A DNA stretch of 64,000 nt from Candidatus Poribacteria bacterium (GTDB taxonomy: Bacteria > Poribacteria > WGA-4E > WGA-3G): positions 4,288,001 through 4,352,000 of the forward strand of contig CAXXLX010000001.1 of assembly GCA_963665235.2 (NCBI GenBank), read 5' to 3'. Made by a program: the position numbers and the translations under genes. Under the pieces are notes generated by a model. The model was not told the DNA's origin. It worked only from the letters and a program-made list of their open reading frames with translations, and did not search any database. Below are positions 23,665-35,576 of the stretch, in pieces. Each line of letters begins with the position of its first letter. Position 1 is the first letter of the stretch.

Positions 23665-24103
23665 TAACAGTAGCAAAAAATCTGTGTTTTTCAGAACATA
23701 AGCTTATGTTACTAAACCTTTTAGGCAATTAAACGTCTAAATTAATGTTTTACATCTGAATGTTCCGCGTTGTGAGTTGTGTTACTTAAACACCATGTAC
23801 AGAGTGCTTAGCGGGCATCCGCCCAATGTTTGCCTGGGTGGGCACAACCTCTGACAACGAAAGTAGCGAAAACCAAGCTTTGATGGAAATAGCAGGCGGA
23901 AATTGTGATAAAAACCTGCTTGGTAGTGTGACTTCGAAGCACGTAAAAAACATCGAACCTTCACAGAAGAAGCAATAAGCGTTCGCTGCCTTGTGTAGCG
24001 AACTTTGGGAGATGACCCCTGGCTGTATTCGTACAGCTTGCAAAACGTGTGTGGAAGTGAAATACATAGTATTCCACGGAAATATACAGTTTAATATCAT
24101 CGG
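23665..24103 (+). mobile_element. Non-coding structured-RNA element, copy 1 (putative non-autonomous IS200/IS605-like)
   Basis: Follows TTGAT and ends ACAGTTTAATATCATCGG; second copy at 24492-25422 shows compensatory stem changes; no TIR and no transposase. Confidence 0.6.
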
Positions 24104-24208
24104 TAACTGATGCCAACACTCACCCAACTGCGCGATGATGCGTTTTCAGCGTCCCAAGAGGCACATAACCGCATGAAACGGGAGATGGCTATCTACAAAA
24201 ATGAACTT

Positions 24209-24340
24209 AATTCTGGGTCGCGGGGATGTGTTACCGGGTCGCAGGTTCGACTCCTGCCAGTAGACCGAGCGTCATGCGAAGCCTACTGTAGCTCAGTGGT
24301 AGAGCACAATATTCAACGCATTCTGTTCTTATCCAGAATT
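24209..24340 (+). ncRNA. YrlA-like Y RNA, copy 3
   Basis: AATTCTGGGTCG...T-arm, acceptor-like stem, D-arm...CTTATCCAGAATT; terminal stem covaries relative to copies 1 and 2. Confidence 0.85.
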
Positions 24341-24346
24341 TTATTT

Positions 24347-24434
24347 GGCGGGCCGAAGTCCTACGTTAACTGCCCGTATAGTAATACACAAAGTGTATCT
24401 ATACTTAAATATCGTAGTACACACCTTGCCCGCT
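24347..24434 (+). ncRNA. Short (YrlB-like) Y RNA, copy 3
   Basis: GGCGGGCCGAAGTCCTACG...CGTAGTAC...CTTGCCCGCT. Confidence 0.75.
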
Positions 24435-24558
24435 GCCTTAAAAAAACGTTAAAAATATAAACCAAACTTAAACTCTGGGTCGAGGATTGATTAACAGTAG
24501 CAAAAAACCTCTATTTTTCTAGGAACATAAGCTTATGTTCCTAAACCTTTTTGAGAAC

Positions 24559-25027
24559 TTGACATACTCTCCCAGCTAAAGCAAGGGAGATTCTTTTAAA
24601 AAGTTCCGCTACGCGTTAGCTATTGGATTGTGGTTTTCAGACGTGTGAACGTCAACGGAGATGCTTGGGCTGTTCCAAGTCTTACTGCCCCTAACTCAAA
24701 GGAATGCCCTTCGTGCTTCGCACCTTCTTTATGCGTTGTGAATCAGTGCTTTGGTATCCAATGCAGCATGACCCGTCTTTTGGATACCGAAAGCATTGCA
24801 CAAAAATGTGGATATTGACTGGGTATCGCCAGAACATCAGCACACAACCCTACCATAGGTTGAGGTTCGGAACTTCAACATTGGTGGCGTTGAAGGTGGT
24901 AATCCGAACCACTGATGATATATATATTATACCACATTTTAATGCAAAAGTCAAATTAAAATTTTAGCTCATGCGCCGCTACTACATCCCCCAGCTAAAG
25001 CACGGGGGTTTTGTAGCGGAAGACTTG
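24559..25027 (-). mobile_element. Non-autonomous IS200/IS605 (IS605-type) element
   Basis: Minus strand: TTTAT|CAAG...CCCCCGTGCTTTAGCTGGGGG left-end hairpin; right end GAATCTCCCTTGCTTTAGCTGGGAGAGTATGTCAA; no tnpA or tnpB ORF; absent from the sister copy. Confidence 0.8.
24926..24954 (-). promoter_or_regulatory. Near-consensus sigma70 promoter inside the IS605 derivative
   Basis: TTGACT-17 nt-TATAAT with extended -10 TG. Confidence 0.7.
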
Positions 25028-25527
25028 ATAAATTTATGTTTTTAATGTTTTACATCTGAATGTTCCGCGTTGTGAGTCGTGTTACTTAAACACCATGTAC
25101 AGAGTGCTTAGCGGGCATCCGCTCAATGTTTGCCTGGGTGGGCATGACCTCTGACAACGAAAGTAGCGAAAACCAAGCTTTGATGGAAATGAGAGGGCAA
25201 AGAAAACGTGAAAAAACCTCTCTGGTAGTGTGACTTCGAAGCACAATAAAAACCTCGAATATTCACAGTATAAGCGTTCGTTGCCTTGTGTAGCGAACTT
25301 TGGGAGATGACCCCTGGCTGTATTTATACAGCTTGCAAAACGTGTATGGAAGTGAAATACCTAGTGTTCCACAGGCTTCAGGCTACAAGCCTGCTCTTCA
25401 ATATACAGTTTAATATCATCGGCGCACATCATCGGAAGCAAGCAGGTTCGACCCCTGCCGGCGCACTTGTGTTTGACGCGCAAGTTTGCCGAGCAATGTC
25501 CGCTGTTTCTTATCCAGAGACACATTT

Positions 25528-25594
25528 GGCGGGCCGAAGTCCTACGTTAACCTATATTTATCCCATATAACCCGTAGGACACACCTTGCCCGCT
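25528..25594 (+). ncRNA. Short (YrlB-like) Y RNA, copy 4
   Basis: GGCGGGCCGAAGTCCTACG...CGTAGGAC...CTTGCCCGCT, 20 nt before the rsr start codon. Confidence 0.75.
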
Positions 25595-25614
25595 ACATTT
25601 CAAAAGGTGACATC

Positions 25615-27261
25615 ATGAGCTATTTAGGGAAATATTCTCCATTGCATCCACATCAGCGGCAGCCGTTGGACGAAAAACAGGTCCAAAATTCTGCCGGCGG
25701 ATACGCCTATCCTGTCTCTATCTGGACAAACTTAGACCGGTTTCTCATTTTAGGGACCGAAGGCGGCTCCTATTACGCCACAGAACAGGATTTGACGAAG
25801 GTCAATGTCGATGCTGTCAAGCAGTGCATTGCCGAGGATGGGGTTCAAGTTGTTGAGCGGATACGTGAGATTTCTGTCTCCGGGCGCGCCCCGAAAAATG
25901 ACCCCGCATTATACGCACTAGCCCTTGCCTTTACCCATGGCGATACGGCAACGAAACGAAAAGTGGAAGAGGTCTTCTGTGATGTCGCACGTATCGGCAC
26001 ACACCTATTCAACTTTGTGGTGTTTGTAGACGGTATGCGTGGCTGGGGCAGGTCGCTACGCCGATTAGTCGGCAACTGGTACCGCACGAAGGACGATAAC
26101 ACCTTGGCGTATCAGGTCCTGAAATATCAATCTCGGAACAGTTGGCGGCATGCGGATGTCCTTGCAAAGTGCCACTACGGTGAAAACCGGGGCATCTACC
26201 GTTGGATAAAAGGGCTTGACACGGATAAGCGTATTGTGCATCGCACCCTACAAAATGAAGAAAAGACAGCTACCGTTTACGAGGCCACCGACGCTTTGCC
26301 TGAATTGCTCGCCGGATATGAGGACCTGAAACGCACAGAGAAACGCGTGGATGTTATCCAGCTCATTGAGAAACATCAATTCACCCACGAAATGGTGCCG
26401 AACGAGTGGAAAAATGAAACGGAAGTATGGGCGGCGTTGCTACAGAACATGCCCGTTATGGCAACGGTGCGAAACCTCGGTAAGATGACGCAAATCGGGT
26501 TGTTGAAACCTTTTGGAGCAGAGGTTCAAACCGTGCTAGAAAGACTCTCCGCTGAGGCGATTCAACGTTCGCGCATCCATCCTATCCAAATCCTTATGGC
26601 GTTGATAACATACAAGGCAGGTAAGGGAGTGAGAGGCAGCTTAACCTGGGAGCCCGTGCCGCAGATTGTTGATGGGTTGGACGCTGCGTTTTATATGGCG
26701 TTCGATAACGTTGAACCGAGCCAAAAGAACACGCTCCTAGCACTTGATGTCTCTGGGTCAATGGCAGGCAGAACTGTGGCAGGATGTGAAGGCTTAACAC
26801 CGCGTAATGCGTCCGCTGCCATGGCACTCGTAACCGCACGCACGGAACCGCATTATCATATCTTCGGGTTTTCAGAAGGTTTTGTGACCCTGCCGATTAC
26901 AGCAAACGATACGTTGGATAGTGCTATTAAAGCTGTCTCTGGATTGCCCTTTGATGGCACCGATTGCGCTCTCCCCATGCTGTATGCATTGGAACATAAA
27001 CTACAGATAGACACCTTCGTCATCTATACAGATAATGAAACGTGGTATGGCGACATTCATCCGAAAACAGCATTGGACAACTATCGGCAAAAGATGGGGC
27101 GACCCGCAAAGTGTGCTGTTGTCGGGATGGTGGCGAACGACTTCTCTATCGCTGACCCAGAGGATGCGGGCATGCTCGATTTTGTCGGGTTTGATACCGC
27201 TACACCTGCATTGCTCAGTGATTTCGCTAAAGATGCAGACATCTCCGATGAAACGGCGTAA
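25615..27261 (+). CDS. rsr: Ro60-related RNA-binding protein (TROVE + vWA domain)
   Basis: QVQNSAGGY, LDRFLILGTEGGSYY, GRAPKNDP, RIGTHLF, KYQSR..W.H.D, RNLGKMT, MIDAS DVSGSM, GTDCALPM, YTDNETW, GMLDFVGFD. Start moved to ATG 25615 (RBS aaggtga). Confidence 0.95.
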   Translation: MSYLGKYSPLHPHQRQPLDEKQVQNSAGGYAYPVSIWTNLDRFLILGTEGGSYYATEQDLTKVNVDAVKQCIAEDGVQVVERIREISVSGRAPKNDPALYALALAFTHGDTATKRKVEEVFCDVARIGTHLFNFVVFVDGMRGWGRSLRRLVGNWYRTKDDNTLAYQVLKYQSRNSWRHADVLAKCHYGENRGIYRWIKGLDTDKRIVHRTLQNEEKTATVYEATDALPELLAGYEDLKRTEKRVDVIQLIEKHQFTHEMVPNEWKNETEVWAALLQNMPVMATVRNLGKMTQIGLLKPFGAEVQTVLERLSAEAIQRSRIHPIQILMALITYKAGKGVRGSLTWEPVPQIVDGLDAAFYMAFDNVEPSQKNTLLALDVSGSMAGRTVAGCEGLTPRNASAAMALVTARTEPHYHIFGFSEGFVTLPITANDTLDSAIKAVSGLPFDGTDCALPMLYALEHKLQIDTFVIYTDNETWYGDIHPKTALDNYRQKMGRPAKCAVVGMVANDFSIADPEDAGMLDFVGFDTATPALLSDFAKDADISDETA

Positions 27262-35244: not shown

Positions 35245-35525
35245 GAAAAAACCCTCCCGTTCCAAAACTGGAGACGAGAAGGCTCTATAAGATTACCTTA
35301 CCGTGGTACCACTCCAATTCCCGTTCTCATTTTTTCACTGAGAAAGGGCACTCTTGGGGATGCGATAACGGGCATCACACCGGCTAACCCTACACAACAA
35401 CCCATGCCTTCGGATTAGCAGCTCCAGGGCGACCTTCAGTCGGTAGCACTTGAGGAAACCTCTCAGCCTACGAATTTCCTTCTCTGACAAGCCGAGCCGA
35501 CTTACTCCTCCCCTTCAACGCTTTT
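35245..35525 (-). promoter_or_regulatory. T-box riboswitch (Val, GUC specifier) with terminator
   Basis: Minus strand: AGTA, CAGAGA, GGCTGAGA, GAAG-GTC-G specifier (35431-35433), T-box GAGTGGTACCACG (35302-35314), terminator CCTTCTCGT...ACGGGAGGG-TTTTTT. Confidence 0.9.
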
Positions 35526-35576
35526 TTTGTAAATTTAATTCAACGTGTTACTAAAAATTGTGTTTCCTTTTTTTAA

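Follow-up and report, generated by a model that had tools for sequence, protein, structure and literature searches.

What does an insertion sequence that has lost all of its genes keep between its ends, and what might this cargo do? The question is raised by a locus in a 64,000-nt stretch of the genome of a Candidatus Poribacteria bacterium (hereafter the window), where positions 24559-25027, minus strand, form a 469-bp ORF-less derivative of the IS200/IS605 family (PATE). An earlier note had described this locus as an IS605 shell in which tnpA and tnpB are replaced by a densely folded non-coding RNA under its own promoter, and all of the features that it named could be located on the minus strand, to the base. 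On the plus strand the longest ORF overlapping the element has 87 aa, and on the minus strand 50 aa. According to passages of PMC10691335, which cite Altae-Tran 2021, stand-alone omega-RNAs function in trans with compatible effectors, and passages of PMC10055086 (Meers et al. 2023) state that PATEs 'often encode' omega-RNAs requiring TnpB in trans. Stand-alone omega-RNAs and omega-RNA-bearing PATEs are a kind already published; the new part here is a structured module at the 5' side of the RNA. From the left to the right end, the element and its flanks contain:

25028..25032, minus strand: target motif (TAM) TTTAT, directly 5' of the left end
24955..25027, minus strand: left end with nested subterminal hairpins, starting at 25027
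24926..24954, minus strand: sigma-70-type promoter TTGACT-17-TG-TATAAT, agreeing at 11 of 12 positions and with the TG extension
24835..24917, minus strand: 5' three-way-junction domain, from helices and covariation
24748..24794, minus strand: long hairpin GCTTTCGGTATCCAA..TTGGATACCAAAGC, lying after the 5' domain and before the omega-RNA core
24559..24712, minus strand: TnpB-type omega-RNA scaffold, from a match to the covariance model R3, running into the right-end hairpin TCTCCC..GGGAGA and GTATGTCAA
24540..24558, minus strand: predicted guide (flanking DNA, reached by read-through from the right end), from this anatomy and the TnpB mechanism as described in passages of PMC10055086 and PMC10691335

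The promoter faces about 360 nt of structured sequence, which include the 5' module of about 110 nt and, at the 3' side, the 154-nt omega-RNA scaffold. When the 386-nt RNA was folded and compared with 100 shuffled sequences, none of the shuffles folded as well (0/100; z = -3.2).

A gene-less element with the ends of resident insertion sequences

We searched the window's genome (4 contigs, 5.3 Mb) for further copies and found nine near-identical full copies of the element, at 89-100% identity. Since the copies at C3:14403 and C1:1018312 have both flanks in common, these represent eight distinct insertion contexts. There is in addition one truncated copy (79%, C1:1843824), as well as a divergent one (C1:1298508) in which the promoter and the 5' domain are missing. 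In the window copy, the first omega-RNA stem is shortened by a private deletion, and a single base is added. Comparison of the nine copies sets the boundaries, similarity being lost exactly between TTAT and CAAGTC on the left and directly after the terminal GTATGTCAA (at 24559) on the right, so that the copies diverge from 24558 onward. Both ends have subterminal imperfect hairpins, those on the left being CCGCTAC/GTAGTAGCGG enclosing CCCCC/GGGGG (25019-24976, minus strand), and terminal inverted repeats are absent. All nine full copies are preceded by TTAT (TTTAT in seven, ATTAT in two), and among the 25 left ends of this type in the whole genome TTAT stands before 24 and TTTAT before 18. TTTAT is also the TAM of G. 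stearothermophilus TnpB2, as given in a passage of PMC10055086.

The description of an IS605 shell was borne out by the resident insertion sequences. The left end of the element is 95-100% identical over 61-62 nt to those of tnpB-only and tnpA+tnpB elements. A tnpB-only IS of 1.41 kb shares the left end and the promoter up to about the transcription start (positions 9-122 of our 501-nt query) and, at the right, the last 43-48 nt. It encodes a TnpB of 400 aa (C1:3242626-3241427) with Pfam matches to OrfB_IS605 and to a Cas12f1-like TNB domain. A tblastn search with this protein matched 39 segments of the genome, and 10 of its matches have at least 94% identity. A Y1 tnpA lies beside tnpB in three resident elements whose left ends match that of the present element, at 98-100% over 61-62 nt in two and over 32 nt in the third. 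Given these ends, the target motif and the Y1 elements, the shell, its target and a likely trans-acting transposase are all present in the same genome.

The IS1341-type tnpB-only and the autonomous IS605 elements thus have in common with the gene-less element the left end, the promoter, the TTAT target and a homologous omega-RNA scaffold, and the tnpB-only IS also shares the right-end hairpin and the terminal GTATGTCAA. In contrast to them, the gene-less element has no 1.2-kb tnpB and a scaffold sequence of its own: homology to the tnpB-only IS breaks off near the transcription start and is found again only in the last 43-48 nt of the element. The promoter, which lies within the common stretch, had been presented as near-consensus, and with 11 of 12 positions it is; however, it is the IS family's own left-end promoter and not an addition. 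It is the best of four promoter-like sites in 1 kb, where shuffled sequences average 1.9.

Two further observations were made on the left end. Between the left-end hairpin and the promoter, five of the nine full copies and the truncated copy contain the palindrome AACATAAGCTTATGTT, and the window copy and three others have a different stretch at this position. A near-identical palindrome is the host terminator beside the right end of the window copy (window 24520-24543), and palindromes of this type occur at only eight places in the genome; this sharing may point to recombination or capture. Separately, an ORF-less element of about 600 bp (C1:490750-491347) agrees with the present one in left end and promoter, and its omega-RNA 3' part is related. 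Its interior is different and has no three-way-junction module, and the element is absent from the nhmmer matches to the module.

Insertion site in the window

The surroundings of the window copy contain a non-coding module of about 440 nt that occurs twice on the plus strand, about 830 bp apart (window 23665-24100, and 24480-24558 plus 25028-25400). Both copies are preceded by a hairpin terminator (AGGAACATAAGCTTATGTTCCT, with a T-run after it) and followed by a plus-strand ORF (24110-24460 and 25486-27261, respectively). It has no match in Rfam and could be a conserved leader. It is the second copy that contains the element; at the corresponding point the first shows 19 other letters.

In contigs of three runs, 24551 is connected to 25042 by 19 other letters, which suggested an empty allele. 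We rejected this reading: the unoccupied paralogue of the module, at window 23665-24100, contains these 19 letters and is the source of the joint, and the contigs are thus no evidence of insertion polymorphism. We found no precise empty site for the element. The earlier statement that the predicted guide matches its own empty site after TTTAT is true by construction and carries no information.

A TnpB-type omega-RNA scaffold at the right end

The right-hand part of the element had been called omega-RNA-like in the earlier note. A covariance model (R3) was built only from nine TnpB-linked omega-RNAs, five from the window's genome and four from others, each with a confirmed upstream tnpB gene. 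This model matched 24559-24712 over its full length (97.5 bits, E = 1.2e-23, model positions 1-161), upholding the omega-RNA reading; its other match in the 64 kb covers only the left-end hairpin (19.6 bits). Alignment by eye with the 3' ends of resident tnpB genes gives the same elements in both, namely a stem, TTTGGnTTAG, GTAAGAC, CCACAAT, the right-end hairpin and the terminal motif. As the R3 match stops where the transposon does, transcription continuing into 24558-24540 would provide a guide. The divergent copy at C1:1298508 retains the long hairpin GCTTTCGGTATCCAA..TTGGATACCAAAGC upstream of the scaffold and has a compensatory change in it. Judged from these sequence features, the element is very probably a PATE with a stand-alone omega-RNA.

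Which nuclease would use this RNA is a separate matter. The earlier note had called for tnpB genes with matching right ends in the genome; such genes exist as far as the last 43-48 nt are concerned, and none of the resident tnpB genes, among the 39 tblastn segments of the window's genome, is joined to the exact scaffold of the element beyond that. The nearest TnpB-linked scaffold, in a tnpA+tnpB element of another genome, is 78% identical over 82 nt, and the TnpB of that element is 43-44% identical to both resident TnpB types.

It might be asked whether the interior is what remains of a tnpB gene, which the earlier note had named as grounds for abandoning its reading if structural conservation were also lacking. 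This is not what we found. Three copies compared by blastx with 20 resident TnpBs gave a best E of 0.6, and the one sensible alignment covers only the last 18 TnpB codons, which overlap the right end (E = 0.8); moreover, the interior has structural covariation, as described below.

Repeats were seen in and around scaffolds of this kind. A short unit, GATGTCCTCGGTGGGACC, was seen from C1:892520 onward, in three of the nine copies of the window's family and at C2:317210-317290. Some copies have it as a single insert in the omega-RNA, and one element has it expanded to a long tandem array; in appearance it is a small hairpin insert that expands within guide-RNA scaffolds. Repeats of about 37 nt in tandem (..CTTTATCGTAGCATAAACTTCCAGTTTGTG..) adjoin omega-RNA fragments or elements at C2:317300-317470, upstream of C1:102437 and downstream of C1:494727.

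Fold and covariation of the 5' module

The 5' module, of about 110 nt, is a three-way junction locked by a 7-bp pseudoknot and followed by a hairpin, P5. Its outer helix, CATCAG/CTGATG, encloses GGTTCGGA/TCCGAACC, CTTCAAC/GTTGAAG and CAACC/GGTTG. The parts are:

24917-24912 with 24840-24835, minus strand: P1 (CATCAG/CTGATG)
24910-24903 with 24871-24864, minus strand: P2
24902-24896, minus strand: internal loop of 7 nt between P2 and P3
24895-24889 with 24879-24873, minus strand: P3
24862-24858 with 24849-24845, minus strand: P4
24857-24850 (P4 loop) with 24902-24896 (internal loop), minus strand: pseudoknot
24832-24819, minus strand: P5 hairpin, with loop CGATAC
24810-24799, minus strand: P6, a small hairpin after the single-stranded TCAATATC stretch that follows P5

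To assess this fold we compared homologues of the module. In a MAFFT alignment of six sequences, 97.6% of cells pair, as against 27-43% when the partners are slid, and double-sided changes occur at 8 of 35 pairs; on the whole RNA, RNAalifold gives compensatory change at 22 of 84 pairs. Inspection of 77 matches to a covariance model of the module (R1) left 64 distinct rows. Here 96.1% of cells pair, against 35-47% when slid, and compensatory (both-side) change is seen at 30 of the 35 pairs in an alignment that was fitted to the model and is thus biased toward the structure, and with which the six-sequence MAFFT alignment agrees. The pseudoknot has all seven nucleotides paired in 35 of 41 distinct loop combinations and six in three more; pairing over 7 nt arises in only 12% of cross-sequence combinations. 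More than 10 different loop sequences occur, each with a matching partner. The pseudoknot of the window copy has 6 bp.

Two other pairings were considered and set aside. Pairing of the P5 loop (CGATACC) with GGTATC of the next hairpin is invariant in the window's family, and the complement is absent from other subfamilies; a long-range GTGG/CCAC pairing had been based on one co-change in one genome.

The sequence of P2 and of the 7-nt internal loop is highly conserved. Furthermore, in 32 of 51 distinct sequences a word of at least 5 nt from the 3' arm of P1 recurs as a direct repeat in the 5' arm of P5, compared with 8.5% of shuffles. The repeated words vary by subfamily (GCAAGT, AGTGC, TGGTGC, CAGGTGA), so that four strands co-vary, and this suggests alternative pairings. 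Compact folds that combine a junction with a pseudoknot are of a general kind found in ligand-binding RNAs. The module could on these grounds be a sensor or switch that binds a metabolite or protein and uses competing P1/P5 pairings to control folding or release of the omega-RNA, in which case the supply of guides would be regulated; the near-tandem repeat, the four co-varying strands and the conserved P2 and loop all speak for it. We nevertheless regard a switch as unlikely, because no terminator or ribosome site lies downstream for it to control, the 3' strand is paired in both pairings, no known riboswitch family matches and the P1/P5 repeat is weak in the window's own family.

A broader form of this idea holds that the module is a new functional RNA class by which gene-less transposons hijack TnpB, either as a switch or as an adaptor that binds TnpB or a host factor. 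It could then gate the maturation or loading of the stand-alone guide, with the P1/P5 strands as its moving part. We consider this improbable, if slightly less so than the sensor or switch just described.

Distribution of the 5' module

By BLAST, the 5' domain was found at 76-85% identity in three Poribacteria genomes of a sister genus, in the same family as the window's genome, as a single copy in each. These copies have another left end, a promoter of their own and an omega-RNA. The R1 model gave 84 matches in 29 of 112 genomes of the window's family. A second model (R2), built from the 77 inspected matches, found the module in 80 of 151 sampled genomes, the sample being one phylum; by family the matches fall in 69/99, 1/10 and 9/26 genomes, and in 0/15 for six other families. 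The window's genome itself has 20 R2 matches, and 21 by nhmmer.

The module is linked to more than one kind of scaffold. Among the nhmmer matches are ORF-less elements with other right ends (..GGGTGCTATCAC, ..GGGTACTATGAC and ..GGGAGATGTCAG). In ORF-less elements of the TATGAC class, the last 99-121 nt match two resident tnpB genes at their 3' ends with 92-99% identity, so that cognate nucleases exist for those sister families. A scaffold of the R3 type follows the module in 28 of 76 sources, with no R3 match at E <= 0.001 in the remainder; those of the latter that we inspected have other right-end and scaffold classes. A tnpB gene was found within 1.7 kb downstream in none of the 77 matches, and tblastn detected only C-terminal TnpB vestiges of up to 62 aa in four of the 77, one of them 1.5 kb distant. 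The genomes of relatives have 10-72 tnpB matches each (5/5 checked).

Homologous elements also keep the promoter: a promoter-like site with at least 9 of 12 positions is present in 62 of 77, and in 59 it ends 0-6 nt before the module. This bears on whether the fold acts as RNA at all. IS200/IS605 elements move as single strands, and the hairpins might act in single-stranded DNA during transposition or be a decaying relic, with no selected RNA function. The folding strand is the same in the DNA as in the RNA, so covariation alone cannot fully separate the two, and the window copy does have private lesions. Against this stand the promoter retained directly before the fold, the persistence of the module across three families of the phylum and several scaffold classes, an interior that is not decayed tnpB, and the frequency of G-U pairs (about 166 of 1938 cells, tallied from per-pair counts in the 64-row alignment). 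A G-U pair would be an A-C mismatch on the opposite strand, which indicates that it is the promoter strand that folds. We therefore hold a purely DNA-level role or a relic to be highly improbable, and are confident that the module is a selected RNA structure.

A complete member of the class was also seen on a 14.9-kb IMG/VR contig classed as viral (L175, 211-640, minus strand), with left-end hairpin, promoter, 5' module, omega-RNA and right end ..GAGTATATCAA. Pattern scans yielded no other members: of four loci on genome contigs three were already known and one was a chance match in a kinase gene, and on metagenome contigs 11 of 11 loci were chance matches in which only the 23-nt pattern agreed.

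Comparison with known RNAs and elements

The earlier note could assign no function to the 5' domain. It has since proved to be a conserved, covarying module without an Rfam match, for which a role can be proposed. An Rfam 15 search of the window returned nothing in the element, the sole match lying elsewhere. This is a T-box leader (RF00230, window 35267-35527, minus strand; 110 bits against a gathering score of 93). At E values up to 10, the element gave only HgcC (16 bits, gathering 50) and sRNA41 (18 bits, gathering 45), both confined to the end hairpins, and a search of 15 homologous loci gave tRNAs only. ARAGORN reported no tRNA-like gene. A 'Poribacteria-1' RNA motif was considered and dropped; the name did not occur in the literature searched, and Rfam gave no match. 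In the literature searched we found no description of the module, and among the papers listed none that joins Poribacteria with TnpB or IS605. The 5' module is hence a well-supported candidate for a new structured RNA family.

With the stand-alone omega-RNAs and PATEs described in passages of PMC10691335 and PMC10055086, the present element shares the protein-less IS200/IS605 build with both ends, the TnpB scaffold at the right end, effector-carrying elements in the same genome and the TTTAT target of G. stearothermophilus TnpB2. It differs in its module of about 110 nt, since the passages of these two papers on such elements contain no conserved 5' RNA domain.

IStrons are IS605/IS607 elements with a group I intron at the 5' side, according to passages of bioRxiv 10.1101/2023.11.20.567912 (see also PMC4227781), and like them the present elements, which belong to the IS605 family, have a structured RNA close to their left end and ahead of the omega-RNA. 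Unlike IStrons, they have in this place a domain of about 110 nt with no group I intron or Rfam family, they carry no tnpB, they have their own promoter and they give no sign of splicing. The parallel invites the thought that the module is a processing element, that is, a new self-cleaving ribozyme or a nuclease entry site that sets the 5' end of the mature guide, or that is freed as a separate small RNA with its own job. Catalytic RNAs are joined to IS605 elements elsewhere, as the group I introns in passages of bioRxiv 10.1101/2023.11.20.567912 illustrate. Passages of PMC10278001 report that TnpB trims the 5' side of its RNA and that an upstream stretch of mRNA can inhibit cleavage; a cut 5' of the scaffold would here free a fragment of about 200 nt. 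A processing function seems very unlikely to us all the same: no Rfam ribozyme matched even at E values up to 10, ARAGORN saw nothing tRNA-like, and the predicted transcript starts a few nucleotides before P1, which makes 5' cleavage appear unnecessary.

A proposed role for the 5' module

Overall, we think it probable that the element is best explained as a non-autonomous PATE with a promoter-driven, trans-acting guide RNA and a conserved 5' module. Both transcription of the element and use of its RNA by TnpB are predicted from sequence. Under this explanation, Y1 TnpA from one of the three tnpA+tnpB elements would mobilise the element as single-stranded DNA. RNA from the promoter would read into the flank and so gain a guide; loaded with this RNA in trans, the TnpB of another IS would cut the TTTAT+guide site left by the element. 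Repair from the sister copy after the cut would then restore the element. In using TnpB in trans for its own restoration, we infer, the element would be a parasite of tnpB-carrying ISs.

Within this scheme, the 5' module would be a self-contained fold that protects the 5' end of the untranslated guide RNA. It may also prevent RNA upstream of the scaffold from misfolding with it, so that the guide could accumulate and compete for TnpB. We propose this role of stabiliser or insulator tentatively, as one that the module may possibly have. Two findings count against it: a pseudoknotted fold of 110 nt goes beyond what 5' protection by a hairpin would require, and a pure stabiliser leaves unexplained the alternative pairings implied by the conserved repeat of the P1 arm in P5.

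Conclusion

To conclude, stand-alone guide RNAs are thought to broaden the target range of TnpB nucleases and resemble steps toward the tracrRNAs of CRISPR systems. The module described here occurs on such guides in several hundred copies, in 80 of the 151 sampled genomes and together with several scaffold classes. If it is true that it raises the stability or loading of the guide RNA, it could be tried on engineered TnpB guides. A module kept by selection on stand-alone guides points to a concrete, testable requirement, and it bears on how an untranslated guide RNA competes with the cis guides that derive from tnpB mRNA.
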